NCBI GenBank assembly: GCA_016903675.1
Contig: JADQBA010000016.1
Span: 60,238 to 100,237 of the forward strand
Length of the DNA stretch: 40,000 nt
Source: Stigonema ocellatum SAG 48.90 = DSM 106950
GTDB taxonomy: Bacteria; Cyanobacteriota; Cyanobacteriia; Cyanobacteriales; Nostocaceae
Direction of reading: 5' to 3'
The position numbers and the translations under genes were made by a program. The notes beneath the pieces were generated by a model. That model was not told the origin of the DNA, made no database searches, and saw nothing but the letters and a program-made list of their open reading frames with translations. Each line of letters starts with the position of its first letter. Within the stretch, counting starts at the first letter, position 1. Below are positions 8,076 to 31,363 of this stretch, piece after piece.

Positions 8076-8091
8076 AAAAATCCAAAATCCT

Positions 8092-12841: not shown

Positions 12842-12850
12842 AGTGAACAG

Positions 12851-13105: not shown

Positions 13106-13209
13106 ATATTTATTCTCTACCTATTAGTGTCACTTCATCTATGGTACTCGTTTATAAAAGAGACACGGGGCTACGAGACAAAATTTTCTAATTAGTGCGA
13201 TAAGATAAA

Positions 13210-16641: not shown

Positions 16642-17483
16642 GAAGTAGTTTAGGAAGCTTTATCAGGAATTTTTGGAGTGAAGTCAATACTTCTAACTTT
16701 GCAGCAAAGGATTTGCAGTCAGTTAATAATTTAATCAATGAGTTAAGTGGAATTGAACAAACATTATTAGAGGCTGATGTTGAAAGTATTTTGACCCAAA
16801 TTAGAGATACTGCTCAAAATTTAGGTGCTAGAGCAAAGAAGGCTCTAAACGATTTACATGATACTCTAAGTAGTGCATGGGAAAATTCCCGTCGTAATCC
16901 TCCTCTTCCAGAAGAAAGTCGAGTCACAGTTCCTGAGTTAGTGTCTCAGATAAACGACTCTAGAAAAGATAACCTTTTTGTGATTCAGTCCCATGACCCT
17001 AATGAACTACGCTCTTTTAGCCGCTGGCTTGGTAACGAAGCTTATGAACAGCGTAGGCGAACAGGGCAAATTAGTCCTTTAGTCAGTTTTATATTTGATG
17101 AAGCTGATGAATTTATTCCTCAAGACGCTTCAGGAACTTATAGAGATTCAACCGAAATTGCAATGACTTTAGCCCGTCGGGGACGAAAATTTGGTTTGGG
17201 AATTGGTATTGCAACACAAAGAATTACCTACCTTGATACCAGCATCATAGCTCAACCCCATACATATTTTGTTTCTAAACTACCACGCAAATCTGACCAA
17301 GACCGAATTCGTGACGCTTTTGGTTTGAGTGATGAAATGTTTCGTCAGACAGTAAAGTTTAAAAAAGGTGATTGGCTCTTGGTCAGTTATGATGCGACAG
17401 GTTTAGAAGCAGTGCCGTTGCCAATTCATACTCCAAACGCGAATGAGAGGCTGGCGAATTTTCTACAAACTTATTCCGATTAA
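16488..17483 (+). pseudogene. HerA/FtsK-type ATPase, C-terminal half only (no Walker A found)
   Basis: Walker B is FIFDEADEFIPQD, followed by ARRGRKFGLGIGIATQRITYLD and FVSKLPRKSDQDRI, typical of the HerA C-terminal half. The frame is closed by a TAG at 16464-16466. Neither other frame encodes a GxxGxGKS motif upstream. The ORF overlaps the NurA ORF by 154 nt. Confidence 0.55.
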
Positions 17484-17521: not shown

Positions 17522-18541
17522 TTATGGATATCTAAGTTTAACACCACTACCACCATTGGGAGTTGGACAATCCCAGCGAAGGTCGCAAATAGCACAATCT
17601 TGTTCGCTAATAGCTCCGGGAACTGCTGGATACCATTGGTCATTGCAACGAGCTTGTTCAATCTGTACTACAGTCTGTGCAAACTCATTTACTGCATCAT
17701 CAATCTCATTGGGCGTGATGCTAACCTCCAGTAAAGCATTAACTGGGCGCTTAGAGGGACAAGTTGGACCATCAAGCTCATTAAGGAAATACAAAATAGC
17801 TTTTTGAGGTAAAACCCCATGTTTTAGCTCATAAAGTTTGGCATAAACCCGCATCTGGAATTCATAGTTTTCTAGGTCTTTTGGATTGACATTCAACAAA
17901 CTACTGCCTTTGTAATCCCACATTTCACAGTCGGCTGGGTTTCCTGCTGCGTCAGGTGCATCTACCAAAAGGTCAACAACACCATGAAGAATGTGAGTAT
18001 TGCGATCCGCTTGCAATCTATGTTCCGTATCTTTAACTCTTTTGTAAAGTGTTGGTCCTTCAAGGGCATTAAAATATTGAAGCAAACGTACAGCTTTGAG
18101 TCGAATATCTTGGGTTATTGCTCGAATTCCTTGGCTTTTTAAGCCATTTTCAACTTCAACAAAATACTTGACAATATCACTAGGAGGTATTGGCTTTGTT
18201 GATTTTGCTTTTTCTGCGTGTCTAAGCTCATCAAAGTAGTCAAGAATTTCTTCATCTTCTAAGATGTTGCAATTATCTGGCAGAGTACCCTTTGTTGAAG
18301 GGTCAATTTTTCCATGGAAATGGGTATGACAGCGATCTAAAACTTGGTGAAGAATAGTGCCAAAGTAAGCCTGGGTTTGATAAGCAGGTGCATATTTATG
18401 GACATTAAAAGCCCCATACTGACGAGCGCATCGTCTAAATGCGACTATATCTTGAGTAACGCTATAACGACGTTTTATATTTGGTGTTTTGGGTAAAGAG
18501 ATTGAAAAACCTTGAAAAGGTTTTCTTCTATTTGTGGTCAT
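17522..18541 (-). CDS. PD-(D/E)XK nuclease of the Cas4/AddB (RecB-like, Fe-S cluster) type
   Basis: 339-aa ORF. Motifs are GVVDLLVD...CEMWDYKGSS (D...ExK-type DYK motif) and QMRVYAKLY (QxxxY). One N-terminal Cys (FRRCARQYG) plus the C-terminal CAICDLRWDC (Cx2Cx5C) form the four-Cys signature. Confidence 0.75.
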   Translation of the reverse strand: MTTNRRKPFQGFSISLPKTPNIKRRYSVTQDIVAFRRCARQYGAFNVHKYAPAYQTQAYFGTILHQVLDRCHTHFHGKIDPSTKGTLPDNCNILEDEEILDYFDELRHAEKAKSTKPIPPSDIVKYFVEVENGLKSQGIRAITQDIRLKAVRLLQYFNALEGPTLYKRVKDTEHRLQADRNTHILHGVVDLLVDAPDAAGNPADCEMWDYKGSSLLNVNPKDLENYEFQMRVYAKLYELKHGVLPQKAILYFLNELDGPTCPSKRPVNALLEVSITPNEIDDAVNEFAQTVVQIEQARCNDQWYPAVPGAISEQDCAICDLRWDCPTPNGGSGVKLRYP

Positions 18542-18552
18542 AAATTTTTCCT

Positions 18553-20778
18553 TTATATCGTAATAGCGAACATATTCCGCTTAAATTCCACATGATTACG
18601 GTTGGGTACAGCAATATGATTTTTAATCTGGTCTTGCGTACCAATTAGAATCAAACCGTATTGTGCGCGTGAATAAGCTACATAAAGCAAACGAATGTCA
18701 TCTTCTATCGCTAAATCTTCTGGTTGTCTAGTATCTCTTTGATAAAGAGCTTGTCGAAATGGAGCTAAGGTTTGCTCAAGCATTTGTGCGGCTCCAACTT
18801 TCCCTTCTTGACCTTACTTTGTAACAACAAATACAAAAGGAAACTCTAAACCCTTTGATTGATGAATTGTCATAATGGGTAAATAGCCTTGAGGAACAAT
18901 GATTTCCTCATCTTCATCATCATCAATACCCGTCTCAATTAAGTAGCTGATAAACATGTTATAAAATTGATTGATAAAACTCTCATCAATGTCATTTCCA
19001 GCAGTATTAGCTCGTAAAACATCTAGGTTAAAACTGTTATAACCTTCAAAAAGACGAGTGACTTTAGAAAGACGTGAGTTTCTTACAGTATCTTGTTTCC
19101 ATGTCCGAAATGGTTCCCGCGAAAGAATACGATAGATGATTTCTAATAAGTTCAGATTCAGAAATCGACCTGGGTTATTTGGGCTTAGACTATTGGCACA
19201 TATTTGTGATAAAGCTGCATTACTATTGTTTAGGTAATCATCTAGTAAATTTGTAGGGACGTTAGGGTCATTTCTCACGCTATCGAGAGTATTGAACCAT
19301 TCCTGAACAGTGTCAATCCACTCCAGAGGTCTTCCCTGTGGGTCTATTTTCGATTGAAAAGTGTGATTTGGGTCAATCACTTGAACCAGTGCTGCTAGTA
19401 AACACTGAACTTCGTCACTCTCCATGAAAGATTTAGACCGAGGATTATAGATAGGAATCTCACGTTGCTGGAATGCTGTAATAAAGGGACCAGCATTTCG
19501 AGCCGAGTCTTTGGCACTTCGTAGCAGTAAAACGCACTGACTTAGATCGGAGATAATTTTATCACCTATCAAATGATTAATCGTAAATTCAGCAACTGCA
19601 TTAGCCAAGTCTCCTACTTTCTTTGTTTGAATCCAAGAAACAGCAGGATATGCTCCAGTAATAGATGAGGCAGCATTGACTGGTTTTTTACCTGGAGCAC
19701 GTACTCCTCGTGCTGTCATTTCTGGAAATGAAGTGATGTATTGGTTGAAAAATTTAACAATATCAGGATGAGAACGGTAGTTGTTATCAAGCTGAATTTG
19801 ATGAGGATATTTACTATACTTAGCCAGACAAGCTTCATCAAAATTCACCATACAGGTTACATTTCCTCCTCGGAAACGATATAAAGCTTGATCGTCATCG
19901 CCGACTACTGTGATATTGTGCGGTGGTTGATGGGCTAAAGCTAAGTAGATTTGCTCTTGAATTGGGTTAGTGTCTTGATATTCATCTACTAATACGTATA
20001 ACAAAGGAGGATTTTGGTCACTTCCCTGTAAAAACTGTTGACCTATAAGAGAGGTGATAAATTCAAGAAAACTAGCTTGGAGATGAGCGAAGTCGCAACG
20101 ATAGTTTTCCTTTAGAGCTTGAGCATACTGCTGATAAAACTTTGCTAAAGTTGCCCAGTGTCCACCAGCACTGAGCATTGCTTGTAAATTAACGTAGTCT
20201 TCTACAATGTGATTAAAAAGTGTGACTGCTGACTTGGCTCGCTTCCATTTATTAGGAGGATAGTTGGTGTTACGCCAATCGCGCACAGCATAATTAAAAT
20301 GTTGCCAGAAAGCTAAATCTTGAAATTTTGAAATATCAGCATAGCGGTAGGTAAATAAATCCTGTTCTACCTGATCCAGAAGGCGAACATTTTGATAGCT
20401 TGGATAGCGGTATTCTTGGAGAATATCATTACATAAACTATGTAGTGTTCCTATTCTGATATCAGCCAGATCAACATTTTTCAGGTTATGATCTGTATTT
20501 TGTAGTGCTACTAGGTAAGTCGCCAAGCGGTCTTCAAGGTTACGTGCTGCTTTAGCAGTAAAAGTAGTTAAGAGAATAGAGCGAGGTTGGACACCATTTA
20601 CACAAAGCAATTTCAAAGTTCGTGTTACTAGTACTTCGCTTTTGCCCGATCCTGGTCCCGCTAGAAGCCACAAGGGACCATTGCCATACTCCACAGCTTC
20701 TTTTTGCTTCTGATCAAGGTCGTAGCCACGTGCTGAAGGTTGAGCAAGACATATGTGGAAAGTGTTCAAATCAATCAT
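18553..20778 (-). pseudogene. UvrD/Rep-family SF1 helicase interrupted by a single in-frame TAA (18814-18816)
   Basis: The 654-aa ORF carries LAGPGSGKSEVLV (motif I), LVDEYQDTNPIQ (II), VGDDDQALYRFRGG (III), NYRSHPDIV (IV) and MTIHQSKGLEFPFVFV (V). It ends at the TAA. The 76-aa ORF 30 nt downstream is in the same frame and carries motif VI, RLLYVAYSRAQ. Confidence 0.75.
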
Positions 20779-20790: not shown

Positions 20791-21045
20791 TTAGCTCTCC
20801 TCATTTTTTCTCCGACCCATATTTGAACGGGCTACCCTGCGTTGCTCAAGAAGTTCATCACGCAGTAAATTTTGCTGCTCAGGGTCTTGCCAATCCCTAA
20901 TCAATCGTTTTAGTGCCACGTTCACCATGTCTTGTAGGCTTGGGGCATCGCTAATTTGATGAGGAGCAAGTGATTGCTCGAACGAGTGTTTAATCCTGTG
21001 CAAGTCCGCATAAATTTCATTTGGAATCCGTGCTTGATAGGGCAA
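20791..21045 (-). CDS. Small hypothetical protein leading the UvrD-nuclease operon (possible DNA-binding regulator)
   Basis: 84-aa ORF, 12 nt upstream of the helicase start and divergent from the DGQHR gene. I recognise no firm motif. Confidence 0.45.
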   Translation of the reverse strand: MPYQARIPNEIYADLHRIKHSFEQSLAPHQISDAPSLQDMVNVALKRLIRDWQDPEQQNLLRDELLEQRRVARSNMGRRKNEES

Positions 21046-21162
21046 TTGTATTACCGCAGCTATATATCTGACCCCAGCATAAATACATACAACTAATTTC
21101 TGCTACCATGTATGCTTGTATGCAAGCTTATGCAAAAATGAAATTAACTTATAGGAGAAGTA

Positions 21163-22260
21163 ATGTTTGAACTTGTCATAAAAGGTGTTCCCGTACACCG
21201 TGGTCCTAAGCGCGAACATATTACTTATGTTGCAAGTACTACTTTTGGTGACATTGCTCGACTATTAAACGATGGTCACCTCTATATCCCCAACATCCCA
21301 GACTTGCCGGACTTTGCCCAACGTAAACTTAACCAGACACGAGTCAAGGCGATCGCCCGGTACATTCTGGAGACTTATCAGGATGGGACTACATTTTTCC
21401 CGCCAATTTGTGTTAATGCTCAACCATCACCAACTTACAAAGATGGTAGCCTCCATCTTCCTTACCAGTCACTTGGATTGCGCTTAACTGATGGTCAACA
21501 TAGATGTTTTGGGATTCGTCAAGCACTCCAAGATATCCAGACGCAACCGTCAGAGTATACCATCATCCTTTCACAATTAGAAATTGGCGTGTTAATATAT
21601 GCTGGACTGTCTTTAGAGGAGGAGCGTCAAGCTTTCCGCGACCAAAACCTGTTAGTCCAACGACCAAGCGTGTCGCTATCCCATGCTTTTGACAGGCGAT
21701 CGCCCACAGTTTTGATTGCCAAAAATTTACTAGAGCGAGTTCCTCATTTTCGCGATAATGTAGAAATGTTTGAAAGCGGATTGGGTCAACACAATCCCAA
21801 GTTGCTAACGCTTGCCACTTTGGTGACTGCAACCCAACATATGTTTTCACATTTGCAGTCAAAAGAGAATTTAGAGCCATTAGTTGATTGGGCAACGGCA
21901 TTTTGGACTGCAACAGCGAGTGTGTTACTCGATGAGCCTTGGACGATAAAAAGTAAAGAGGAACGTGCAGCTCAAAGACAGGATTCATTAGTAGTGAGCG
22001 CTCCTATATTTCAGGCATTGGGGATGTTGGCTCACGACTTATATCAAGAGGGTGTTCCAGCAGAAAATTTTGTCCAGTGGTTAAGCAGACTGCAAGAAAT
22101 AGACTGGCGGCGCTCTAATCAACTATGGCAAGAGCGAGGTATCACACAAGTTAGAAGTCAGGGAGAAGCAATTATTCCAAATACTAAGACAACTATTAGG
22201 GCTTGTCATAAGGTACTAAGAGAGTTGATTGGTGTTGCACCCGTTGGTGGTGTGATTTGA
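21163..22260 (+). CDS. DGQHR-domain protein (DndB/DpdB-like, ParB-fold)
   Basis: 365-aa ORF with the literal motif LRLTDGQHRCFGI. It is preceded by ataggagaag (SD-like) 4 nt upstream. Confidence 0.8.
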   Translation: MFELVIKGVPVHRGPKREHITYVASTTFGDIARLLNDGHLYIPNIPDLPDFAQRKLNQTRVKAIARYILETYQDGTTFFPPICVNAQPSPTYKDGSLHLPYQSLGLRLTDGQHRCFGIRQALQDIQTQPSEYTIILSQLEIGVLIYAGLSLEEERQAFRDQNLLVQRPSVSLSHAFDRRSPTVLIAKNLLERVPHFRDNVEMFESGLGQHNPKLLTLATLVTATQHMFSHLQSKENLEPLVDWATAFWTATASVLLDEPWTIKSKEERAAQRQDSLVVSAPIFQALGMLAHDLYQEGVPAENFVQWLSRLQEIDWRRSNQLWQERGITQVRSQGEAIIPNTKTTIRACHKVLRELIGVAPVGGVI

Positions 22261-23096
22261 GCAAATTCCAATCCTAAAACTTCTTGAAAGACATTGCGGT
22301 TACTAAACTTGCTGTCATAGCGCTCGTTCCACCACAACCAACCAGTAGAATCTGCCCAAACATTGTGCTTTTTGAGTACTTCTATACGGGTTAATGCCAG
22401 TCCTCCTAAGACAAACTCCGGTCGGCTCCAAGCCAATAGTTCATCCAACTCTTCTATAGACAAGCCAAATTTAAAGCCCGTGGTTCTAGTTTTATCAACT
22501 TTCAATAGCCCTCCCAGTGCAATGTACTCATAGCCAATGTCCCGATAAACACTAATCAAGGGAGCCAGGAAGCTTTTAGGTAATTCGTAATGTGGAGGAA
22601 AACAATCTAACTGGGGAACTACCTTTTGATGCCAATTGTAGATTGCATACCCAACTTGAACTACGCCAATCAAAGCATAGGTTCTTTGTTTATGCCAATA
22701 TTCTTCCCAAGTTAATCTGGCTAAATATAAAGACAGTAATGGCTCACCAAAAATGTCTTGCGTGAAAACAAAATCAGGACAAAATTGGTCACAACGTTCG
22801 AGATATTCTTTAACCTTCTGTCGTAAATGCTGTTCAGATGCCAAACGTAACTCACGCATCCACCGATGATTACGGTATTCACAATACTGTTGGTAGTACC
22901 AAGGGAAATCTTGATTTGTAAAAACACCACTGTCTATAAAAAAGGGCTTTTCCAAATCACGAATACTCTGAAGGAGCTTATTGTAACATGAAACAGGTGC
23001 AAGAACACCATAATTTCCTTCTATTTTTTTTAATCTTTTTAATAAACCTAACCAGTCCATAGAAAAAACTGGTAAAAATTTATTATTTAAATTCAT
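22206..23096 (-). CDS. Divergent TGT-fold (DpdA-like) protein lacking the Zn-binding motif
   Basis: 296-aa ORF. FFIDSGVF, YEYIALGGLL, FVLGGLALTRIE and WADSTGW parallel GDCGAFGY, YDYIAIGGLA, LFGVGRIE and SFDSAGP in the neighbouring 711-aa protein. No CxCxxC...H motif is present. Confidence 0.45.
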   Translation of the reverse strand: MNLNNKFLPVFSMDWLGLLKRLKKIEGNYGVLAPVSCYNKLLQSIRDLEKPFFIDSGVFTNQDFPWYYQQYCEYRNHRWMRELRLASEQHLRQKVKEYLERCDQFCPDFVFTQDIFGEPLLSLYLARLTWEEYWHKQRTYALIGVVQVGYAIYNWHQKVVPQLDCFPPHYELPKSFLAPLISVYRDIGYEYIALGGLLKVDKTRTTGFKFGLSIEELDELLAWSRPEFVLGGLALTRIEVLKKHNVWADSTGWLWWNERYDSKFSNRNVFQEVLGLEFAQITPPTGATPINSLSTL

Positions 23097-23165
23097 ATTT
23101 TTAATATTTAATTTCTTATTATAAGATTAACATTATTCTGGATGATAATCCTCTAAGTTTTCTGT

Positions 23166-25301
23166 TTAATTTTCACTATTTAGAAATTCTTGTAAACGAT
23201 TATAAAATATATAAGTATTGTGAAAACCACGTCTACGATTGCGGTCATTTCCTCTAAAAATAACTGCTTCTACCCCAATTTGTTCACAGATTTTACACTT
23301 ACATTCCTGCCAAGGTCTTGCTTCTAAAAGCTCTCTGTACATCTGAGTGTGTTGTCTTAAACGTCTGGCTTTAGCTGCTGGGTTGACCTTACCGTTGCGA
23401 GGTAATTCTAACAACTCGTCGAAAGCAAGCAGTTTATTGAGCGCATCATCTATCGATATTTTATCTTTATCATATTCTCGGATTGCGAAGAGTGCGTCTT
23501 GCTCAAGCAGCTTGAGAGTTTCACGCTCATAACCATTTTCCAATAAATGCTTAATTCGTTGTGAGTGCTTATCTACAAAAGGAATACGGACAGCAGCGTA
23601 ATTTTTCCCGCTCATAGTATGGTAGTTGTTTACTGCATCAAACCAAGCTTTACGCAACGGACCTGCAGAGTCAAAGCTAGTAACTCCCAAATGGCGGAAA
23701 TAAGGAATAGCTTCAATACGCCCCACCCCAAATAAATGTAGTCTTGTTGTGGGAGTCAAATGTGGATAAACCTCCTGTAGAACTTCTAAAATTTCTTTAG
23801 TTGGTGTTCTTGCTAGTCCACCTATAGCAATATAGTCGTACCCCATTTCAACCAGTGCTTTCACTGCATCAGCATATTTTTCTGGATTCCACCCTTGTGC
23901 AACACCTATAGGAGTAAATGTATACCCTCTGCTGTCATGTTTTCTGATAAATTCCTCTGCATTTCGCAAAGTAAGGTCATAGCGTTTCTCTCTTACTCCA
24001 GGTTGTGCAAAAGGTCCCACAATTAAGTGGTCAATACTGACTCCGTAATTGAAGCCCAGTTGCTCATAATAATCCAAAATTTCTACAGTATTATATGGAG
24101 GTTCTTCCTGTTTTATATATCCAAACGCTCCACAATCTCCCATGATTTTTCCTGGGAACCTAACAAAGTTGCGGATACCTCCTACTGCTTCTATGTCATT
24201 CTTTTTTGATTTTCTTTTATCAACAACTACTTTAGACACTAAAATTCCATGATAGTTCCGTTCTCCATATATTTCATGGGCATAGATATCGTCTGTATAT
24301 GCATTACGATTGGGACTAAATTTATCTTGTTCAAAGACATAGCCAGCATCTACTTTATCATCCCATTCTGGAATAAAGTATTGCATTTGTAAATGCTTAT
24401 TAACTGCTGGACGTAATTCCAGAAAGCGATGTAAATCTTCTTCTGTAGATTTTGGCTTACTTTTTGTTTGATTTTTAACTCTTGACTTTTTTTCTTTTGA
24501 AAATGAGATTCCTAAAGGTAAATATAATTGATTTGGTTGCTTATCTAAAACATCTTTTAGTATTTCTGGCTCTCTGTATAAATTTTGCAATAAATCAGAG
24601 TTCTCTCTCACTTCATTGGCAATCAGCTTGAGCAGATGTCCTTTTAATCCCACTAATGCACAGCTAAAACGTGATGCATCGGCATTGGAAAGAGTAAACA
24701 CTTCAGACTTAGCTTTGTCTGAATCTATATAATTTATGCTTTTATTTGAGGCGAAAAATATGAAAGTTTGGTTAGTATGAGTCTCAACAGGTAAGTTTAA
24801 AGCACGCAGGTATTTATCTCCAAGCAAGACAAACACCAAATCGTATCCAACAACTGCTTGTTTAAATGCCTCATGTATTCCGAGAAAATCTGCCCAAGAA
24901 CAAACCTCATTACTCTTCATCGAGTTGAATGTGACGGAGTAGGGAACGATAACTCTGTCTTCAGGGATTAACCCATACCCTGCTGAGATGATTTTCACAT
25001 CTACCACATATGATCCAAAGCGCTTACCGTCAGGTTGCCTCAGGCTGCGCAGGATATTTACACCCTCCATTGCCCGCATATGCTGTAAACCCGTGTACAT
25101 CTGAGCTGCTGGACAAGAAAACTCAGATAGTAATTGAGAGCGTTCGCTTAACTTCTTTGCGTCTTTAAAATCTTCGATTGTGAGCTGGTTTGTTGGCTTA
25201 AAGCGTTTTTCCCCTGTACAAGAGGTAATTACTAAAACGCGAGGCTGTTGCTTGATATGATTTAACGCAACAGCAGTTGTTGTTTCAAATAATTTAGTCA
25301 T
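23166..25301 (-). CDS. dpdA: Fusion protein: N-terminal domain of unknown function (about 330 aa) joined to a C-terminal DpdA-type guanine transglycosylase (TGT fold)
   Basis: 711-aa ORF. The C-terminal half has GDCGAFGY, DYIAIGGLA, HLFGVGR and SFDSAGP, plus the zinc motif CKCKICEQIG-(x)-FH (CxCx2Cx21H). The N-terminal half has VLVITSCTGEKRF, AAQMYTGLQHMRA, IISAGYGLIPEDRVIVPYSVTF and VFVLLGDKYLRAL. The ATG overlaps the queD stop by 8 nt. Confidence 0.65.
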   Translation of the reverse strand: MTKLFETTTAVALNHIKQQPRVLVITSCTGEKRFKPTNQLTIEDFKDAKKLSERSQLLSEFSCPAAQMYTGLQHMRAMEGVNILRSLRQPDGKRFGSYVVDVKIISAGYGLIPEDRVIVPYSVTFNSMKSNEVCSWADFLGIHEAFKQAVVGYDLVFVLLGDKYLRALNLPVETHTNQTFIFFASNKSINYIDSDKAKSEVFTLSNADASRFSCALVGLKGHLLKLIANEVRENSDLLQNLYREPEILKDVLDKQPNQLYLPLGISFSKEKKSRVKNQTKSKPKSTEEDLHRFLELRPAVNKHLQMQYFIPEWDDKVDAGYVFEQDKFSPNRNAYTDDIYAHEIYGERNYHGILVSKVVVDKRKSKKNDIEAVGGIRNFVRFPGKIMGDCGAFGYIKQEEPPYNTVEILDYYEQLGFNYGVSIDHLIVGPFAQPGVREKRYDLTLRNAEEFIRKHDSRGYTFTPIGVAQGWNPEKYADAVKALVEMGYDYIAIGGLARTPTKEILEVLQEVYPHLTPTTRLHLFGVGRIEAIPYFRHLGVTSFDSAGPLRKAWFDAVNNYHTMSGKNYAAVRIPFVDKHSQRIKHLLENGYERETLKLLEQDALFAIREYDKDKISIDDALNKLLAFDELLELPRNGKVNPAAKARRLRQHTQMYRELLEARPWQECKCKICEQIGVEAVIFRGNDRNRRRGFHNTYIFYNRLQEFLNSEN

Positions 25302-25683
25302 CTTCGTACTCTACCCAAGAATTAGGAGTTTCTGAAACCGCAACCTTCAGTTGTACATCAAGCGGCACCCGCTTCTTGGTTTCGTCATAAATATATTTAG
25401 CAATCATCTCAGATGTTGTTTCATATTCGGGAGGCATGACTTCGTTTAGGATGCAGTGGTCAAGTCCTCCCTTACTTACATCTTTCTTTGCCCAACGTAG
25501 AGTTCTGAAATCCGAGACCATCGCTGGATGCGGACAATACTCGGACAAATGCAGCGAATATGACGATGCCTCGATTCGCACTTTATAAGTGTGCCCGTGC
25601 ATTCTACCACAGGGTCCGTCGTAATCCTTAATATAATGAGCGCTATCAAACGTAAATTCTGTAACGAGTTTCCATTTGGGCAT
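25294..25683 (-). CDS. queD: 6-carboxy-5,6,7,8-tetrahydropterin synthase QueD (PTPS fold); start at 25683 preferred over the track start at 25743
   Basis: MPKWKLVTEFTFDSAHYIKDYDGPCGRMHGHTYKVRIEA carries the Cys and His-x-His catalytic and zinc signature of QueD/PTPS. Starting at 25683 gives 129 aa, a typical QueD size. Confidence 0.85.
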   Translation of the reverse strand: MPKWKLVTEFTFDSAHYIKDYDGPCGRMHGHTYKVRIEASSYSLHLSEYCPHPAMVSDFRTLRWAKKDVSKGGLDHCILNEVMPPEYETTSEMIAKYIYDETKKRVPLDVQLKVAVSETPNSWVEYEDD

Positions 25684-25820
25684 TTTATGTATCCCTATTA
25701 AACATAAATTGCTTTTTAGCAAAATAAGTTCATCTTTATACAATAAAAGTATTCGATTATACTTTTCTTAAAAAAGAATATTCGATATTACCGTGAATGT
25801 AAATACTTTGGCACAAACTG

Positions 25821-26183
25821 TTACTGTGTAGCGGCTTCGGATAGTAAACCTGACATGGACAGGACGTGTTCTGACGCCTGTTTGGCGACAAGAGTAACCT
25901 GAGTTCTCGCCTCCGTATCAGTACAGATTTGACTCCAGTGCCGTTGCCAACGGGAAAGTAGACGCTGTAAATCCACCAATTCTGCTGCTTGGTCTATATC
26001 CATGGACTGCGCAGTCCACTCAATAAAAAACTTGCTTTCTTCTACGAGACTAACAACTAAATCACCATGTGCTGGGTCATCTAAAAAAGATTTAATCCGT
26101 GCCAAGTTTGCAGCTAGGTTCCCCAAACGGGTGGGAATATTATCTCTTTGAAGCCTTTGTTGTTTTTGAGTCCAGTCTTTCAT
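25821..26183 (-). CDS. Hypothetical protein (120 aa), all-helical appearance
   Basis: An ORF with no recognised motif. A 23-aa mini-ORF (26251-26180, MEIQDATIRERVAEVIQQLLGDV) overlaps its start via ATGA. Confidence 0.45.
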   Translation of the reverse strand: MKDWTQKQQRLQRDNIPTRLGNLAANLARIKSFLDDPAHGDLVVSLVEESKFFIEWTAQSMDIDQAAELVDLQRLLSRWQRHWSQICTDTEARTQVTLVAKQASEHVLSMSGLLSEAATQ

Positions 26184-26305
26184 ACGTCTCCTAGCAACTG
26201 TTGAATAACTTCGGCAACTCGTTCTCTAATCGTAGCGTCCTGAATTTCCATTGAACTTAATCAGCAACGCCAAAAACTTTAATAATAATGATCATCAAAT
26301 AGAGA

Positions 26306-26338
26306 GGGGATGAGGCTAGCGTCGCTAGCCTCATCCCC
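26306..26338 (-). terminator. Perfect hairpin (15-bp stem, 3-nt loop) downstream of the large WD40 gene
   Basis: ggggatgaggctagc gtc gctagcctcatcccc. On the minus strand it is followed by tctctatttgatg, which is only moderately U-rich. Confidence 0.45.
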
Positions 26339-26541
26339 TATAACCCGCGCACGATTATCATTTTCATTTAGATAATTTTAAGTATTTTAACTGATTGACA
26401 AAAGTCACTTTACCTTAACCTCTCACGAATGGCTGGTGGGCACTGCCCACCCTACGAAATCATCAGCTTTTTGTTGCTCTGATTTTCGCAACAAGGCGGT
26501 GGTGCAAGATATGAGCCTACCCACTTAACTAATAAGTTCTT

Positions 26542-26576
26542 AATTACGAATTACGAATTACGAATTACGAATTATT
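26542..26576. repeat. Heptamer tandem array AATTACG x4 plus AATTATT, the same family as 5818-5852
   Basis: aattacg aattacg aattacg aattacg aattatt. The array overlaps the stop codon of the WD40 gene. Confidence 0.9.
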
Positions 26577-29500
26577 CACTCACTGCTCCCAAAGCTTTCA
26601 AAGTTACCTTTTCAGCTACCGTTAAACCAATTATACCTGTAATATTCATACCCTCATAAGGTCTATGTGCCCTAAAAGTTTTTAAACACTCACCTGTAGC
26701 CACACTCCAAAGCTTAATAGTCTCGTCTTTGCTACCACTGGCTAACATTTGACCATCTGGACTAAAAGCAACACACCAGATCACTTTCTCATGTCCCCGC
26801 AACGTTTTCAAAGTTACACCTGTATTCACATCCCAAAGCTTTACTGTTTGGTCATCGCTGCTACTTGCTAACATTTGACCATCTGGGCTAAATGTAATTG
26901 ACCTAACTCCGTGGGTATGTCCTTGAAAAGTACGTAGGCATTGCCCTGTACCCATATGCCATAGTTTAATGGTTTGGTCAGCGCTACCACTGGCAACAAG
27001 GCTACCACAGGGACTAAAAGCAACTGATAAAACCCAATCCTCATGTCCTACCAAGGTTGTTAAACAAATACCAGTACTAGCATCCCAGAGTTTAATGGTT
27101 TGGTCATCACTACCGCTGGCTAAGGTCGTTCCTTCTGGGCTGAAAGCTACTAACTTGACCCGATGAGTGTGTTCTTGCAGCGTATGTAAACACTCACCCG
27201 TGCGCCAATCCCAAAGCTTAACAGTGTAATCGTTACCACCACTTGCCAGAATTTGTCCATCTGGACTGAAACAAACTGATTGAACCCAACCACTATGTCC
27301 CCACAAAGTTCTCAAACATTCACTTGTCTTGGCATCCCACACCTTGATAGTTTGGTCATCACTGCTGGAAGCTAGGATTTGAGTACTGAGGTCACTGAGT
27401 GTGGCAAATGTGACTGCTGTGACTATATTAGTATGACCAAGCAATGTTCTTTTACATTGTGCCGTCGAAATATCCCACAGTCTGACTCTATGGTCTGCAT
27501 GACTACTTGCCAAGGTTTGACCATCCACACTGAAGGCAACAGATGACACCCAATTGCTGTAAGTTGAGAGCGATCGCAAGCATTGTCCAGAAGAAAAATC
27601 CCAAAATTTTACAGTTTGGTCATCACTCACACTCACCAACGTTTGCCCATCAGGACTAAAACCAACTAACCAAACCCTCTCGGTATGTTCCTGCAAAGTT
27701 TGCAAACAATCAACCGTTGAAACATCCCATATCTTAACAGTTTTATCTTCACTTGCTGTCGCCAGTAACCGACCATTTGCACTGAAGTTAACTGACCAGA
27801 CATAGCTGCTGTAACCTGGTATAACTTTAACACATTCTAGCGTCTGGATATCCCATAATTTCACAGTGTTACCATCGCTTCCCGTTGCTAGTATATGCCC
27901 ATCAGGACTCAAAGCAACAGAACGTTTCCAGTTGATGTTGGTTTCCAAACTCCGCAAGCACTGACCGTTATTAATATCCCAAACCCTTACAGTTTGGTCT
28001 TCACTGCTACTCACTAATATTTGTCCATTTCCACTGAACGCAACAGACCATATCCGACCTGTATGTCCAAGCAAAGCTTTAATGTACTGCCCAGTGTGTA
28101 TATTCCATAATCGCACAGTTTGGTCATTACTACCACTTGCCAAAATTTGACCATCTGGACTAAAAGCAACAGATTTCACCCAACCGGTATGACCTCGTAG
28201 GGTTTTGAGACATTGCCCAGTTTGAACATTCCACAATCGTACTGTTTGGTCATGACTAGCGCTTGCCAAAATTTGACCATCTGGGCTAAAAGCAAGACAT
28301 ACTACCCAACTAGTATGCCCGTTATAGCAGCGCAACTTTCGACCATCTGCAACTTGCCACAAACAAATCTCTTCATCAATCCCTATTGCTATCAACTTTC
28401 CGTCTGGACTAAAGGTTGCTGAGAAAATAACGCCTAAAGTTTGAGTCAATACAGATTTAGTCAAATCTGAGTTAGAGAAATTGACGAAGTGCAAATTCAT
28501 CCCCTGTAGGTACGCCTGCCAAACAGTTAAGTTAGAAAAATTATAGCCACTGAGGTCTACCTGCAATTGCCAGAGGAGATTGAGAAGATTACCCCCAGCA
28601 TATCCCGGTTTTCGGGGTGCATGGGAACGTAGTGTTGACAGCAACTGATTCAAGTGGTCTTGGACAATTTCCTGATTTCCCAAAAAAGTCAGAAGTCTAT
28701 CGGCAATAGGCTTCAGTATCAGCCTTGTTTGAGTATTTCTTAAATAATCTTTTGCCTGAGATTTGATGAGCGCATAGCTATTAAATTTTGTTATTTCTCC
28801 AGCTAAAATCTCTTGGCAAATCTCTTCGATAAATCGGTCAGTGATATATTCCATAACTACGGGTTGTTGAGAGAATTTTGCCAATTTTTTCTCAACTAAA
28901 GAGCGCGATATTAGAGAATCTAATGTTTCTAACAAATCCCGTGGTGCCACAGCAGGGATAATATCTCCTTGCAATTCTGCTAGTGATAACCATTCGCGAT
29001 TAATTGCCAGCCAGTACATGACCTGCTGTTCTAACACAGACAGGCGATTAAACTGTTGGTCAAGTAAATCTGAAATGTCTCCAAATACAATTGTGCCTTG
29101 CTGCAAAAACTCAGCAGTACTACCGTCAAATAACTCCTGAATGGTTGTCGCCACAATCTTGAGTGCCAGTGGATTGCCTGCATAGTAACTCACTAGCGTG
29201 CGACCTTCATCTTCAGATACAGAAAAGCCTTTTTCTAATAGAATAGAGTGACATTGTTCTTGAGGTAAACCAGATAATCTTAACGAATGAATACGTGAAT
29301 TTTTACCTTCTTTAACGCTAATTCCTCGAAGTTTTTCCCGACTGGTTAATACCAGGCAACTCTGATGGTTAGTTTCTCCCACACATCTAAAAAGTTGCCC
29401 ATATCCTTCATATCCTTGTCGATATGCTCCTGCACGTTTGTCACTGGATAAAATTGATTCTACATTGTCAAGTACTAACAAACAGCGTGCAGAACGGAGA

Positions 29501-31071
29501 TACTCAATTAATCGAGCAATTTTAGCATCCACTGTCTCGGGAAAAACCCTCTCCTGTTGATGAGAAAAAAAGTTAATGAGGTCAGTAAGAAGTTCTGGGA
29601 GAGTAGGAGCATTACGAAGGCTTCGCCAAATGAGATACTCAAATTCATCTTCAAGAAGCTGTGCTAACTTCACAGATAAAGCAGTTTTCCCAATTCCACC
29701 CATCCCAAACAAAGTAATCAGTCGGCTTTGGTCGTGAACAACCCATTGTTCTAGTTGTGCGAGTTCTTCTGTGCGTCCGTAAAACGCTGAAACATCGATC
29801 GCGTCTCCCCAGTCCTGTCGTTTACGAGTAGTTTTTGCCGCACTATATCTAGTTTGGGCGCGAACCTCACAATCAAAATTTAAAGCAGTCCCATTACCCC
29901 AGTCCATTTTTTCTTCCTGCGGTAAGGCAAATAAACTGCGGCGACGAAAATTTTTCCCACTTAACTGTAGCCAAGTCGGCGGTGTAGCGGCGGGATTTTG
30001 GCAAATGACAGGTAACCAAGAAGCACAGGGAAAGTCATCTTCTAAGCCCTGTAGCTTTCTGCGTGCTTGCTGTACCGCCAAGAATAAAGATAGTTGCTCA
30101 ATGGCGAAACCTTGTAAAAAATTATTAAAAAATTCCTGTGCCACCAGATTGGGCACAGACTCCCGCATCACAATTATTGTGGGAATATTCAGTTTCTCAA
30201 GAGATAAAGCCAATCCCAACCCATCACAGGAGTTGAAGATTGCCAGCTTTAAACCTTTATCAATGGCGACTTTGAGCGCTTCTTCTAATTGTTCAATCCC
30301 CAGGCTATTGTTGGTGGGATTTTCATTGATATAAATCTTGCCTGTTTCACCCTCAGTTTGGCTGTGACCTGCGAAAAAAAGGATATCCCAGCCATTGGAG
30401 TCCCAAAGCTGCGTGTTGAATTCCTGACGTTTTGGCTTGACAAGAAAGACAATTTCTGAATCAGGCAAGCTGTTAAGCCACTTGCGCTCTGCTTCCAAAT
30501 CAATACCAGCGCTGTTGCCCAGAATTGCCAAAATTCGCACTTTATGATGTTTGATTTGTAGCGGTGATATTTCGCGGCGTTTATACTCGGGTCGGGAAAG
30601 CGCCATTTCAGCCAGTGGATAATCCTCAAAAAAGTCACAACGATGCCACGGTAATCGCCGTAGCATCAGATCATTGGTTTCAAGAATTACCCGTATTTCT
30701 TCCTTTGGGTTGAGTCGAGATCGCACTTGGCGGCTAATGTTAACAATCCCCTCGGATCTCAACCAAGCATTCATGGATTCTGCTAATTTTTGACACAAAT
30801 CATGAAAATCAGTGATTGAGATGTTGGTGATCCCGCTAAAATCAATTTCCAGATCATCATCTTCAAGGGAACGGAGATACATGCGATCGCACAAGCTATC
30901 ATAATTTGACCGCCATTTTTTATACAATTCAATTAAATTAGGAGCAGGAGGCAACCAACCGATGAATTGCTCTGGTAGTGGATGACCTAATACCCACAGT
31001 TGGACAGTAATTCTTGGAAATCCCAGATACAACTCGCCATGTCCCAGATTAATGACAACTGACTTGCTCAT
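26572..31071 (-). CDS. STAND NTPase with CHAT/caspase-like domain, NB-ARC P-loop, pentapeptide-like linker and 14 WD40 repeats; start at 31071 preferred
   Basis: The His/Cys dyad context is ILFFAGHS...LAIFNSCDGLGLA. The P-loop is LFGMGGIGKTAL and Walker B is CLLVLDNVE. The linker NFSNLTVWQAYLQGMNLHFVNFSNSDLTKS follows. I counted fourteen xW(D/N) blade ends (VRLWNV, VKLWDI, IKLWDA and so on). The track's first 25 aa translate the octamer repeat. Confidence 0.8.
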   Translation of the reverse strand: MSKSVVINLGHGELYLGFPRITVQLWVLGHPLPEQFIGWLPPAPNLIELYKKWRSNYDSLCDRMYLRSLEDDDLEIDFSGITNISITDFHDLCQKLAESMNAWLRSEGIVNISRQVRSRLNPKEEIRVILETNDLMLRRLPWHRCDFFEDYPLAEMALSRPEYKRREISPLQIKHHKVRILAILGNSAGIDLEAERKWLNSLPDSEIVFLVKPKRQEFNTQLWDSNGWDILFFAGHSQTEGETGKIYINENPTNNSLGIEQLEEALKVAIDKGLKLAIFNSCDGLGLALSLEKLNIPTIIVMRESVPNLVAQEFFNNFLQGFAIEQLSLFLAVQQARRKLQGLEDDFPCASWLPVICQNPAATPPTWLQLSGKNFRRRSLFALPQEEKMDWGNGTALNFDCEVRAQTRYSAAKTTRKRQDWGDAIDVSAFYGRTEELAQLEQWVVHDQSRLITLFGMGGIGKTALSVKLAQLLEDEFEYLIWRSLRNAPTLPELLTDLINFFSHQQERVFPETVDAKIARLIEYLRSARCLLVLDNVESILSSDKRAGAYRQGYEGYGQLFRCVGETNHQSCLVLTSREKLRGISVKEGKNSRIHSLRLSGLPQEQCHSILLEKGFSVSEDEGRTLVSYYAGNPLALKIVATTIQELFDGSTAEFLQQGTIVFGDISDLLDQQFNRLSVLEQQVMYWLAINREWLSLAELQGDIIPAVAPRDLLETLDSLISRSLVEKKLAKFSQQPVVMEYITDRFIEEICQEILAGEITKFNSYALIKSQAKDYLRNTQTRLILKPIADRLLTFLGNQEIVQDHLNQLLSTLRSHAPRKPGYAGGNLLNLLWQLQVDLSGYNFSNLTVWQAYLQGMNLHFVNFSNSDLTKSVLTQTLGVIFSATFSPDGKLIAIGIDEEICLWQVADGRKLRCYNGHTSWVVCLAFSPDGQILASASHDQTVRLWNVQTGQCLKTLRGHTGWVKSVAFSPDGQILASGSNDQTVRLWNIHTGQYIKALLGHTGRIWSVAFSGNGQILVSSSEDQTVRVWDINNGQCLRSLETNINWKRSVALSPDGHILATGSDGNTVKLWDIQTLECVKVIPGYSSYVWSVNFSANGRLLATASEDKTVKIWDVSTVDCLQTLQEHTERVWLVGFSPDGQTLVSVSDDQTVKFWDFSSGQCLRSLSTYSNWVSSVAFSVDGQTLASSHADHRVRLWDISTAQCKRTLLGHTNIVTAVTFATLSDLSTQILASSSDDQTIKVWDAKTSECLRTLWGHSGWVQSVCFSPDGQILASGGNDYTVKLWDWRTGECLHTLQEHTHRVKLVAFSPEGTTLASGSDDQTIKLWDASTGICLTTLVGHEDWVLSVAFSPCGSLVASGSADQTIKLWHMGTGQCLRTFQGHTHGVRSITFSPDGQMLASSSDDQTVKLWDVNTGVTLKTLRGHEKVIWCVAFSPDGQMLASGSKDETIKLWSVATGECLKTFRAHRPYEGMNITGIIGLTVAEKVTLKALGAVSE

Positions 31072-31080
31072 GTTCTTGGT

Positions 31081-31120
31081 AGGGGTGTAGGGGTGTGGGG
31101 GTGTGGGGGTGTAGGGGCAT
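31081..31120. repeat. Octamer tandem array RGGGGTGT x5
   Basis: aggggtgt aggggtgt gggggtgt gggggtgt aggggcat, located 10 nt upstream (in minus-strand terms) of the preferred start codon of the STAND gene. Confidence 0.9.
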
Positions 31121-31363
31121 AATTTCAAATAAAATTTTCCGGACACCCTTAGTCTCCTACACCCTTACACCCTTTCTTTTCTTGACAAGCTACAGCCAAC
31201 AACTATAATACAATATGTAATCTATTTGATATAAGGATTGCCTTTGTTGTCTGTCTTTGAGTGAAAACGTAATTCCAGCCTAACGCACCTCTCTCACGCT
31301 TCTGGTGCGAAACTATTCATTTGCATTTACGACCTCAAAGAAATACCAACAAAGGAATATTCA

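Follow-up and report, generated by a model that had tools for sequence, protein, structure and literature searches.

We consider it probable, from sequence comparisons, that a four-gene block of Stigonema ocellatum SAG 48.90 encodes the modification core of a Dpd-type restriction-modification system based on 7-deazaguanine, in a cyanobacterial version. The block lies in a window of 40,000 nucleotides, the whole stretch of DNA that was analysed, and had been interpreted in an earlier note as a module acting on DNA rather than tRNA. All four ORFs were recovered where that note had placed them, including its minus-strand operon facing a DGQHR gene. The genes for QueD, a 711-aa fusion protein and a 296-aa TGT-like protein (mini-TGT) follow one another on the minus strand and converge on the plus-strand gene of a 365-aa DndB-like protein, the last two genes overlapping at their 3′ ends by 55 bp. 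This arrangement is not due to chance, since the same gene order is seen in dozens of cyanobacterial genomes.

The 711-aa protein (23166–25301, minus strand) is a DpdC::DpdA fusion. Its C-terminal ~411 residues (23166–24401) contain a DpdA domain of the bacterial DNA-guanine transglycosylase kind, zinc site included. Residues ~306–705 match the NCBIfam DpdA equivalog NF041059 with 474 bits (cutoff 200) and PADLOC DpdA with E = 1.9e-126, whereas tRNA TGT models reach 42–49 bits, all far under their cutoffs. The PDB entry 7ui4, the DNA-guanine transglycosylase of S. Montevideo, is matched with E = 1.9e-90, while no tRNA TGT does better than E = 4.5e-8. In the zinc motif, ECKCKIC...GFHN is aligned to CECNIC...GFHN of 7ui4; in the pairwise alignment MGDCGAF, SIDH, GVAQGW, AIGGL, SFDSAGPL, CKCKIC and GFHN stand at corresponding positions, and the domain keeps counterparts of the S. 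Montevideo residues D95, D130 and D256, of the GG loop and of the CxCxxC...H zinc site. It is 39% identical to Enterobacter DpdA (tblastn), and NCBI's PGAP already calls the fusion protein DpdA. The domain thus qualifies as an equivalog-level bDpdA, predicted to insert preQ0 into DNA, and the assignment to DNA rather than tRNA modification made in the earlier note stands on the equivalog match and the 7ui4 comparison.

The N-terminal ~300 residues (24402–25301, minus strand) had been regarded as an extra domain fused to DpdA in a cluster with no dpdC. The fusion is real, but several lines of comparison assign the extra domain as a DpdC-type DUF6884/YaaA-fold domain followed by a linker, so that a dpdC-type component is present after all. 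The segment barely exceeds the cutoff of Pfam DUF6884 (PF21818; 34.3 bits, cutoff 30) and matches PADLOC DpdC models over the first ~110 positions only (E = 3.4e-8 to 9e-3); DpdC itself has been assigned to DUF6884/DUF328. The CxxxK motif is present as SCTGEK and the SAxxG (LSAxxG) motif as ISAGYG, with S27, C28, K32, S106, A107 and G110 invariant across 39 fusions. The AF2 model (pLDDT 86) has an ordered core at ~residues 20–255 and then a low-confidence linker; its sole PDB match under E = 1e-3 is the YaaA (DUF328) structure 5caj (E = 5.2e-5, with a low TM-score of ~0.3). BLASTP against the DpdC-position protein of an Enterobacter island gave a weak hit (E = 1e-5, 28 residues, one motif), and no NCBIfam DpdC model matched the window protein or that Enterobacter protein.

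Upstream of the fusion, the operon encodes QueD (6-carboxytetrahydropterin synthase; 25294–25683, minus strand). Translation probably begins with the ATG at 25683, as previously proposed, while the mechanical ORF extends to a TTG at 25743 (25294–25743). The protein matches Pfam PTPS (PF01242) with 98.5 bits and TIGR03367 QueD with 74 bits, under the cutoff of 89, and carries the QueD signature CxxxHGH (defined in PMC10516641) as CGRMHGHTY. An 8 bp overlap of the queD stop with the fusion-gene start suggests translational coupling. Many related loci likewise have QueD ahead of the fusion, and 78% of dpd islands have been reported to include it. It is the sole preQ0-pathway gene within the window, as the earlier note had it; the remainder of the pathway is absent there.

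The convergent gene (21163–22260, plus strand) encodes a DGQHR/DndB-family ParB-like protein of 365 aa, and profile searches agree with the DGQHR assignment made earlier: Pfam DndB is matched over the full length with 270 bits and TIGR03187 DGQHR with 113.8 bits (cutoff 58.85; motif LTDGQHR). The implied identity with DpdB fails. Neither the DpdB equivalog NF041060 (no match at E <= 0.01; the model gives 477 bits on canonical DpdB) nor PADLOC DpdB (no match at E <= 10) recognizes the protein, BLASTP against canonical DpdB returns E = 3.4, and we reject orthology to DpdB. PGAP names its Allocoleopsis orthologue DndB, and its full-length Pfam match is shared with DndB of Dnd phosphorothioation systems. 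Unlike that DndB, however, it scores 126 bits (E = 1e-36) against TIGR03233 DndB, under the equivalog cutoff of 328, and stands in a context of deazaguanine rather than sulfur modification, with no dndA, C, D or E nearby and no dnd genes in the window or related loci; a Dnd-system DndB was rejected as well. We presume that the protein is the ATPase partner in place of DpdB, DpdA being described as dependent in vitro on a partner with ATPase activity. About a quarter of mini-TGT loci lack the DndB-like protein, however, and it could instead be part of the helicase module next door.

The gene downstream of the fusion (22206–23096, minus strand) encodes mini-TGT, a member of a cyanobacterial family without annotation. 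Judging by its AF2 model (pLDDT 81, pTM 0.80), mini-TGT is a very divergent TIM barrel of the TGT superfamily which appears to possess the whole catalytic set of DpdA. No model of Pfam, NCBIfam, PADLOC or PHROG matched it (including PF01702, TIGR00449 and the DpdA models), and a profile search of PDB gave nothing at E <= 10. Its homologues fall into at least 144 clusters, in which every named member is cyanobacterial; no viral relatives were found. In a Foldseek search against PDB, the top 15 matches of the model are TGT/QTRT1 structures (E = 1.7e-7 to 5.5e-5) that rank above other barrels, with bacterial TGTs the best among them, and QTRT2 is also among the matches; TM-scores are modest (~0.47), and 7ui4 is not among the 50 matches listed. 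Comparison with the DpdA-domain profile by hhalign gave 92.9% probability (E = 3.8e-7; control 0.1%), confident over 49 core columns only. Together the Foldseek and hhalign results support the earlier count of two TGT-fold proteins.

The putative catalytic set of mini-TGT comprises D55, F59, D114, Q147, G195-G196 and D249. Across 38 close and 11 distant relatives, D55, D114, Q147, G195/G196 and D249 show no or almost no variation, and in the model they are located at the ends of barrel strands 3 (D55), 4 (D114), 5 (Q147), 6 (GG195-196) and 8 (D249). The same strands carry D95, D130, H181, G206/207 and D256 in DpdA, although residue pairing outside the core is of low confidence and that of D55 and D249 rests on a low-posterior alignment and strand order. 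The distant relatives, at 21–26% identity, keep the same invariant residues, and two of them are fused to DUF6884. The protein has no conserved Cys/His cluster and neither a zinc subdomain nor Ins8, its chain ending ~25 residues past D249, and no DNA-binding or nuclease-coupling domain is visible in it.

Bacterial Tgt (PF01702; e.g. the Z. mobilis structures) is the best structural match of mini-TGT and shares with it the (beta/alpha)8 barrel with DSG-F, VQ-G, GGL and D-S motifs on equivalent strands. Unlike Tgt, mini-TGT lacks the zinc subdomain and a PF01702 match, shows ~14% identity and occurs in a context of DNA defence rather than tRNA modification. Viral DpdA2, DpdA3 and DpdA4 (PMC6884629, PMC10516641) offer another parallel: like mini-TGT, these members of the TGT superfamily have diverged beyond the reach of ordinary sequence searches and were recognised by HHpred-level methods only, and mini-TGT shows a weak structural match (E = 0.013) to a protein of Cellulophaga phage phiST. 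In contrast to these viral proteins, mini-TGT has no PHROG or Pfam DUF6610 match, is chromosomal or plasmid-borne in cyanobacteria and co-occurs with bDpdA instead of being the sole transglycosylase.

On the other side of the DndB-like gene lies orf84 (20791–21045, minus strand), a small conserved protein with no family or PDB match, whose sequence pattern suggests a ribbon-helix-helix protein. It is divergent from the DndB-like gene wherever detected beside it, heads a variable helicase/nuclease operon, and adjoins the DndB-like gene in nearly all loci with that gene and flanking sequence (exception L056). The intergenic region between the two (21046–21162), in which TATGC repeats occur along with an inverted repeat that is imperfect, is a possible operator. 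Behind orf84 follow a UvrD-family helicase (18553–20778, minus strand; Pfam UvrD-helicase 185 bits) and a PD-(D/E)XK nuclease that carries a cluster of Cys residues in its C-terminal part (17522–18541, minus strand; Cas4/AddB-like; Pfam PDDEXK_1 54.9 bits), the putative restriction nuclease paired with this helicase; the nuclease likewise comes after UvrD behind orf84 in L002, L003, L005, L019, L027 and L033. An in-frame TAA at 18816-18814 splits the UvrD gene into 654 aa and a 76-aa tail, whereas orthologues in L002, L005, L019, L027 and L033 are uninterrupted (736–746 aa), so the window copy is probably a pseudogene or an assembly error. Farther on, orf508 is paired with a C-terminal HerA remnant (15115–17483, plus strand; PADLOC HerA E = 5e-46, C-terminal part only) missing ~1.1 kb of N-terminal coding sequence; the orf508/HerA pair recurs beside deazaguanine modules elsewhere and is undamaged in two loci, behind orf84 in L035 and ahead of a mini-TGT-like::DUF6884 fusion in L049. 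The premature stop in UvrD and the truncation of HerA make the restriction arm of the window look decayed. As noted earlier, DpdD–K are absent: searches of the window, PADLOC models among them, revealed no counterpart to any of DpdD, E, F, G, H, I, J and K, and the lone DpdJ-like signal comes from SngC, the helicase of Shango. Shango, PIN, HNH, Panacea and HerA genes make the window a defence island.

The order QueD–fusion–mini-TGT, with a convergent DndB-like gene and a divergent orf84 plus helicase module, recurs across cyanobacteria. Fusion and mini-TGT are adjacent in ~34 of 40 informative loci, with mini-TGT 50–130 bp downstream on the same strand, and the DndB-like gene lies within 6 kb in ~27 of 36. 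Where loci were chosen via the DndB-like protein, mini-TGT and the fusion stand alongside it in five of seven informative cases, mini-TGT being missing in the other two. Homologues of DpdJ (35–37% identity), DpdK and DpdD occur in L030, L032, L037 and L038, with DpdK and DpdD located together with DpdJ just upstream of mini-TGT (immediately upstream in L037 and L038); L051 and L052 contain a Pfam match to DpdG and DpdH-like proteins. Since relatives carry such Dpd effector homologues and the helicase-nuclease arm of the window is damaged, the compactness that had been taken as a design feature is partly a result of loss.

The closest known system is Dpd of Salmonella enterica serovar Montevideo (dpdA-K; Thiaville 2016; Yuan 2018; Gedara 2023, PMC10164549). 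Both encode a bDpdA-type transglycosylase, a DpdC-type DUF6884 domain, an accompanying QueD and a DGQHR ParB-like partner whose gene converges on those for modification, and related cyanobacterial loci carry DpdJ, DpdK, DpdD, DpdG and DpdH homologues as well. The module differs in having DpdC fused to the DpdA N-terminus, a DndB-like DGQHR protein that fails the DpdB model, an added mini-TGT gene and a small orf84 heading the effector operon; in place of DpdD–K, the window has the interrupted UvrD and the PD-(D/E)XK nuclease. A second cyanobacterial Dpd architecture (Nostoc NIES-3756 and Picosynechococcus PCC 73109 plasmids, Oscillatoria CS-180) shares with the module the DpdC::DpdA fusion, often QueD/E/C, and a second small TGT-like protein. 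Unlike mini-TGT, the latter (~312 aa) has PF01702 and tgt_general matches and is flanked by two DEAD helicases; its relation to the mini-TGT family is marginal (hhalign 14% probability), and that architecture has no DndB-like or orf84 gene.

From domain identities, catalytic-residue conservation and synteny we infer the enzymatic activities, the partnership of the DndB-like protein with DpdA and the role of mini-TGT as follows. QueD would boost the supply of CPH4, which host QueE and QueC, encoded in the same operon in other cyanobacteria, would convert to preQ0. The DpdA domain may then swap guanine for preQ0 in double-stranded DNA via TGT double displacement, and the fused DpdC-type domain may hydrate the nitrile in DNA to give dADG. 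The DGQHR/DndB-like protein would provide ParB-type NTPase help, as DpdB does to DpdA in Salmonella, as a non-orthologous replacement. We suggest that mini-TGT is a second base-exchanging or base-excising enzyme of the superfamily, probably catalytically competent; because its active site is present without the zinc/DNA-binding insertion, it is most likely active in complex with a partner. We favour a role in the modification step, as a second DNA transglycosylase. Finally, orf84 and the helicase-nuclease genes behind it would form the restriction arm, apparently inactivated in this window.

Some weight, if clearly less, should be given to the possibility that mini-TGT is a modification reader or base-excising effector of the restriction arm rather than a modification enzyme. 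Guanine or 7-deazaguanine flipped into a TGT-type pocket could distinguish self from foreign DNA, or mini-TGT could excise bases from unmodified DNA and pass the result to the adjacent helicase-nuclease module. How Dpd restriction senses modification is described in the literature as an open question, which leaves room for such a function, and several loci are consistent with it: mini-TGT ends a DpdJ-DpdK-DpdD operon in L037 and L038; L032 has the DpdJ/K/D set, then a reversed UvrD-like gene, then mini-TGT; in L037 and L032 the fusion is on a separate contig with QueD/E/C; a mini-TGT-like::DUF6884 fusion stands behind a HerA pair; and the small TGT of the second architecture sits between its helicases. 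However, the usual place of mini-TGT is in the QueD–fusion operon directly after the fusion, the nucleophile and acid/base Asp residues are both invariant, which would be superfluous for a pure reader, and the lack of a visible DNA-binding or nuclease-coupling domain argues against either function.

It is rather unlikely that mini-TGT serves the DpdA domain as an accessory subunit, as QTRT2 does QTRT1 in eukaryotic TGT, with little or no turnover of its own and helping or replacing a DpdB-type partner. TGT enzymes function as dimers (PMC6884629), and QTRT2 is among the structural matches. The tight adjacency to the fusion would fit co-translation, and loci with the fusion, mini-TGT and DpdG/DpdH-like proteins have no DGQHR protein within 10 kb. 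Against this, the full catalytic set is kept even in the distant relatives, the zinc subdomain of TGT and DpdA, which contributes to the TGT dimer interface, is missing from mini-TGT, and mini-TGT and the fusion are on different contigs in L032 and L037.

Equally improbable, in our estimate, is that the window juxtaposes two unrelated neighbours, QueD–fusion–mini-TGT and an independent DndB-associated helicase-nuclease system (DndB-like–orf84–UvrD–PD-(D/E)XK). A defence island could bring such systems together, the DndB-like protein is not a DpdB orthologue, and DndB-like/orf84 occur without a nearby fusion (L030, L032, L034, L037) or without mini-TGT (L056, L057). Nevertheless, DndB-like/orf84 adjoin mini-TGT in all mini-TGT-selected loci having them and in five of the seven DndB-like-selected ones, the modules behind orf84 are often DpdJ/DpdK homologues, dnd sulfur-modification genes are absent, and no other candidate is encoded for the ATPase partner that DpdA needs in vitro. 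A role in tRNA queuosine/archaeosine-type modification or a 7-deazapurine small-molecule pathway is scarcely credible: PGAP and older annotations also label the fusion 'queuine tRNA-ribosyltransferase' and QueD is common to the queuosine pathway, but the equivalog and 7ui4 scores of the DpdA domain, its fusion to a DpdC-type domain and the neighbouring DndB-like, helicase, nuclease and DpdJ/K/D/G/H-homologous genes all speak against it.

The reading that we prefer remains a modification core with mini-TGT as a putative second transglycosylase. The DpdC::DpdA fusion is the standard form in cyanobacteria, and mini-TGT is the truly new part of the module. In ~50 related loci, the core stands beside interchangeable helicase-nuclease modules (DpdJ/K/D homologues, DpdG with DpdH-like proteins, UvrD with PD-(D/E)XK, or HerA pairs), which points to the core and modules together being a Dpd-type restriction-modification system.

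The modification block consists of four open reading frames, all of them found where an earlier note on this DNA had placed them. QueD (25294-25743, minus strand; probable ATG at 25683) heads an operon in which the end of its gene and the start of a 711-aa ORF (23166-25301, minus strand) share 8 bp. A 296-aa ORF (22206-23096, minus strand) follows 69 bp 3′ of it and is convergent with a 365-aa ORF (21163-22260, plus strand), the two overlapping by 55 bp. Entries DSM106950_10065 and DSM106950_10070 of Stigonema ocellatum SAG 48.90, the source of the window, show 100% identity with the 296-aa and the 711-aa protein, respectively. The four genes are intact in the window, with their catalytic residues kept.

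Residues ~306-705 of the 711-aa protein score 474 bits against the NCBIfam DpdA equivalog (cutoff 200) and match the PADLOC DpdA model with E = 1.9e-126. The same region aligns to the DNA-guanine transglycosylase of Salmonella Montevideo (7ui4) with E = 1.9e-90, whereas tRNA TGTs reach E = 4.5e-8 or worse. In a pairwise alignment with 7ui4, all residues with a proven or proposed catalytic role in DpdA, as given in the DpdA paper (D95, F99, D130, H181/G182, G206/G207, D256 and the zinc ligands), have counterparts. The earlier note had described this protein as a DpdA carrying an extra domain, in a cluster without dpdC; the first half of this description holds, and the second does not, since the extra domain is itself of the DpdC type. 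Residues ~20-255 match Pfam DUF6884 above its cutoff, as well as several PADLOC DpdC models, DpdC being the DUF6884/DUF328-like member of Dpd systems. The DUF6884 motifs listed by Pfam, CxxxK and LSAxxG, appear as SCTGEK and ISAGYG, and their positions are invariant across 39 cyanobacterial fusions. Modelled by AF2 (pLDDT 86), residues 1-300 have a single significant PDB match, YaaA (5caj), the DUF328 prototype. Together, the matches, the invariant motifs and the YaaA-like model argue that dpdC is fused rather than absent.

The DpdC::DpdA fusion is the normal form in cyanobacteria: proteins of ~700 aa that share both of its Pfam domains fall into at least 120 clusters, and many of them already bear the PGAP name "tRNA-guanine transglycosylase DpdA". 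One retrieved fusion, P0159, is placed on no contig. There is only moderate support for the N-terminal domain being an orthologue of Salmonella-type DpdC; its family and the very fact of the fusion suggest a nitrile-hydratase activity for it.

Along its whole length, the 365-aa protein matches Pfam DndB (270 bits); on the model of the DGQHR domain it scores 114 bits. The earlier note had implied that it is DpdB, a view contradicted by profile searches: it falls below NF041060 and every PADLOC DpdB model, while a canonical DpdB encoded in a dpd island of Enterobacter cloacae reaches 477 bits on NF041060, and BLASTP finds no significant similarity between the two proteins (E = 3.4). By these matches it is a DndB-like protein, not DpdB. 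Neither canonical DpdB nor canonical DpdC was found in any of about 60 related loci. DpdA is known to require an ATPase function in vitro. If the DndB-like protein supplies it, a partnership suggested by gene position only, it would be a non-orthologous replacement. A published reappraisal of Dnd systems was searched for links between DndB and TGTs, and none was found in it.

The most likely course of modification, with each activity a prediction, would begin with preQ0 supplied by QueD together with host QueE and QueC. The DpdA domain would then exchange guanine for preQ0 in DNA, with NTPase assistance from the DndB-like protein, and the fused DpdC-type domain would convert the inserted base into dADG.

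The 296-aa protein, hereafter mini-TGT, has no match in Pfam, NCBIfam, PADLOC (even at E ≤ 10) or PHROGs, and both phmmer and profile hmmsearch against PDB return nothing. BLASTP against the DpdA half of the 711-aa protein recovers the GYxYIAxGGL motif alone. Its family comprises at least 144 clusters at 90% identity with a typical length of ~274 aa; all named members are cyanobacterial, and all are annotated as hypothetical. The AF2 model is a (beta/alpha)8 barrel (pLDDT 81, pTM 0.80), for which the best 15 PDB matches are TGT or QTRT1 (E = 1.7e-7 to 5.5e-5), with unrelated barrels behind them. Profile-profile comparison by hhalign, informative in local mode and meaningless in global mode, relates mini-TGT to the DpdA domains of the fusions over a GVVQ...ALGGL core (92.9% probability, E = 3.8e-7), against 0.1% for the control comparison with DUF6884 domains. 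The model and the profile comparison thus bear out the earlier reading of a second TGT-fold protein, and we regard mini-TGT as a predicted minimal, unannotated enzyme of the TGT superfamily.

In a relaxed alignment, the invariant mini-TGT residues D55, F59, D114, Q147, G195-G196 and D249 pair with DpdA D95, F99, D130, H181, G206-G207 and D256. The model puts them where barrel strands 3, 4, 5, 6 and 8 end C-terminally, and the DpdA paper assigns their counterparts to the same strands. That the nucleophile and the acid/base aspartate are both conserved argues for catalysis. The protein lacks Ins8, the zinc-binding, DNA-contacting insertion that makes up 30% of DpdA. Of the family proper, an exhaustive profile search of 1.8 billion representatives yielded only about four at full length, together with distant relatives (21-26% identity) that keep D55/S56, D114, Q147, G195/G196, R237, D249 and W253; two of these relatives possess a C-terminal DUF6884 domain. 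Metagenomic P0253 (480 aa) and P0254/P0285 (376 aa), as well as an ORF of locus L049 (6257-7387), combine an N-terminal mini-TGT-like barrel with C-terminal DUF6884. Their domain order is the reverse of that in the DpdC::DpdA fusion and links the barrel family independently to DpdC-type chemistry. A scan of viral contigs revealed no relatives of mini-TGT; matches in BFVD are weak (best E = 2e-4), and the likeness to phage DpdA-like proteins is marginal.

Through mini-TGT, 42 genome loci were retrieved, and the counts that follow are selected for this gene. The fusion lies immediately 5′ of mini-TGT in about 34 of 40 informative loci, and a DndB-like gene is found within 6 kb, nearly always convergent, in about 27 of 36. 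When the DndB-like gene served for selection instead, mini-TGT and the fusion were both present in five of seven informative loci. The small gene orf84 (20791-21045 in the window, minus strand) is divergent from the DndB-like gene in every locus where both were detected. It matches no family and no PDB entry; to see a ribbon-helix-helix protein in it is only a reading of its sequence pattern. The intergenic region 21046-21162, between orf84 and the DndB-like gene, has TATGC three times as well as an imperfect inverted repeat of 15 nt (21077-21091 / 21109-21123), and is a possible operator. Promoter and terminator scans stayed at background level save for one strong hairpin. A GC-rich hairpin with a perfect 16-bp stem (26305-26339, minus strand), between a NACHT/WD40 gene and orf120, is likely a terminator marking the upstream boundary of the QueD operon. 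The gene orf120 (25821-26183, minus strand), 5′ of QueD, has no family match and a counterpart in one related locus only (L001, 48% identity); it is probably outside the system.

Comparison of the loci shows a Dpd-type system with exchangeable effector modules. After orf84, the window and loci L002, L003, L005, L019, L027 and L033 carry UvrD with a PD-(D/E)XK nuclease. The Allocoleopsis PCC 7113 plasmid, L017 and L031 (whose contig stops inside the helicase) carry a DpdJ-like helicase (347 bits, NF041067) with a DpdK-like PLD protein, further loci carry other DpdJ-like helicases, and L035 has orf508 and HerA. In loci without the DndB-like gene, the genes that come directly after mini-TGT are those for an SNF2-like and a DEAD helicase, DpdG (Pfam PF28110) and a DpdH-like ATPase. 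In L037 and L038 mini-TGT closes a DpdJ-DpdK-DpdD operon (DpdJ 37% identity in L037), and in L032 a reversed UvrD-like gene separates such a set (DpdJ 35%) from mini-TGT. In the genomes of L037 and L032 the fusion resides elsewhere, within a QueD-x-QueE-QueC-fusion operon.

Several other genes recur around these modules. Between QueD and QueE of such operons, L043 (2139-2546) and L044 (2012-2422) encode a conserved ~135-aa protein with no Pfam match. In Myxacorys californica (L033 7932-8723, minus strand), a third TGT-like ORF, 31% identical to the DpdA domain over ~270 aa, lies between the fusion and mini-TGT. A ~396-aa hypothetical protein with no family match, absent from the window, is located between mini-TGT and the DndB-like gene in L047 (3831-5021, minus strand), L019, L033 and L035. 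An uncharacterised protein of ~500-620 aa paired with a HerA/DUF87 ATPase is recurrent near deazaguanine modules: in the window (15115-17483, HerA N-terminally truncated), after orf84 in L035 (11201-14758), before the mini-TGT-like::DUF6884 fusion in L049 (2509-6206) and adjoining the QueD/E/C-fusion genes in L063 (338-4129).

In the window itself, the effector side seems to have decayed. An in-frame TAA (18816-18814) interrupts the UvrD-like helicase, giving 654 aa and a 76-aa tail with the C-terminal helicase motif. A conserved split gene is ruled out, as five orthologues of 736-746 aa are uninterrupted; the TAA is thus a nonsense codon specific to this assembly. Since the record carries a MAG label, faulty assembly might explain the stop, which marks either a pseudogene or an error of this kind. 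The HerA gene beside orf508 is missing ~1.1 kb of N-terminal coding sequence relative to L035. No homologue of the restriction proteins DpdD-K was found in the window, as the earlier note had it.

The 40 kb around the block form a defence island, with Shango, PIN, HNH, a Panacea-type pair, the HerA remnant, the UvrD-like helicase and the PD-(D/E)XK nuclease. PADLOC identifies a complete Shango SngABC (4490-10326; SngA (TerB_C) 50 bits, SngB 584 bits, SngC 827 bits), upstream of which lies a DUF815 AAA ATPase gene (3055-4380). Small toxin-antitoxin-like genes at 11460-14159 specify a PIN protein and its partner of 116 aa, an HNH endonuclease, and a SocA/Panacea antitoxin whose gene precedes that of an NsnC-like protein. 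Large WD40-repeat proteins are typical of filamentous cyanobacteria; two are present (26572-31146, 1524 aa; 34719-37025, minus strand, 768 aa), the former of which, judged by its sequence, looks like a CHAT/NTPase-WD40 type. A 167-aa ORF (32919-33422) with only a C-terminal GMC-oxidoreductase domain looks like a gene fragment.

Loci selected by the fusion revealed a second architecture, in which the DpdC::DpdA fusion is accompanied by a ~312-aa PF01702-positive TGT between two DEAD helicases of ~780 aa each (TGT at L045 6159-7082, L048 14326-15273 and L063 17938-18876), and the DndB-like gene is absent. It is carried on plasmids of Nostoc NIES-3756 and Picosynechococcus PCC 73109. This TGT is only marginally related to mini-TGT; across both sets of loci, a second small TGT-like protein is recurrent in cyanobacterial Dpd systems.

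As to the role of mini-TGT, we favour a second DNA transglycosylase, a reading that draws on where the gene usually stands, in the QueD-fusion operon, and on the mini-TGT-like::DUF6884 fusions. A role in restriction, as a reader or exciser of bases, stays in play because mini-TGT can close a DpdJ/K/D operon and because helicases flank the TGT of the sister architecture. We tentatively propose, as less likely than not, that mini-TGT is a sixth, bacterial, new branch of DNA-acting TGT-like enzymes partnering bDpdA. It would then be either a second writer whose mark differs, for instance in the 7-deazaguanine used or in its sequence context, or the long-sought component that senses or excises the modified or unmodified base and couples Dpd status to the interchangeable helicase-nuclease effectors. 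A relation of the whole to the BREX-related "BRC" HerA+GNAT+TGT system is excluded, its PglZ, DUF6079, STAND and DUF4007 components (PMC12839542) all being absent here.

Dpd systems, the structure and mechanism of DpdA and the chemistry of DpdC are already known, cyanobacterial dpdA genes have been annotated, and one survey reported a cyanobacterial island without dpdC and without a restriction operon. In the literature searched we found no description of a DndB-type protein in place of DpdB, of orf84-headed interchangeable effector modules or of the mini-TGT family, and no report of 7-deazaguanines in cyanobacterial DNA. The same search yielded no description of the DpdC::DpdA fusion as such, although the first Dpd papers (PNAS 2016, Mol Microbiol 2018), which lay outside the search, may mention it. 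Mini-TGT is the one truly unannotated protein family within the cyanobacterial Dpd variant; because Pfam, NCBIfam, PADLOC and PHROGs do not see it, these islands are miscounted in current surveys.

If the proposal for mini-TGT is true, a second small TGT in both cyanobacterial architectures and the mini-TGT-like::DUF6884 protein beside HerA would point to a general two-TGT logic. To our knowledge, no restriction-modification system is more complex than Dpd. The cyanobacterial variant offers natural experiments on how Dpd recognizes its own mark and on the need of DpdA for DpdB: DpdC is covalently joined to DpdA, DpdB is exchanged for a DndB-type protein or missing, restriction modules are freely swapped, and an extra minimal TGT-fold enzyme is present that keeps the catalytic residues without the DNA-binding insertion.
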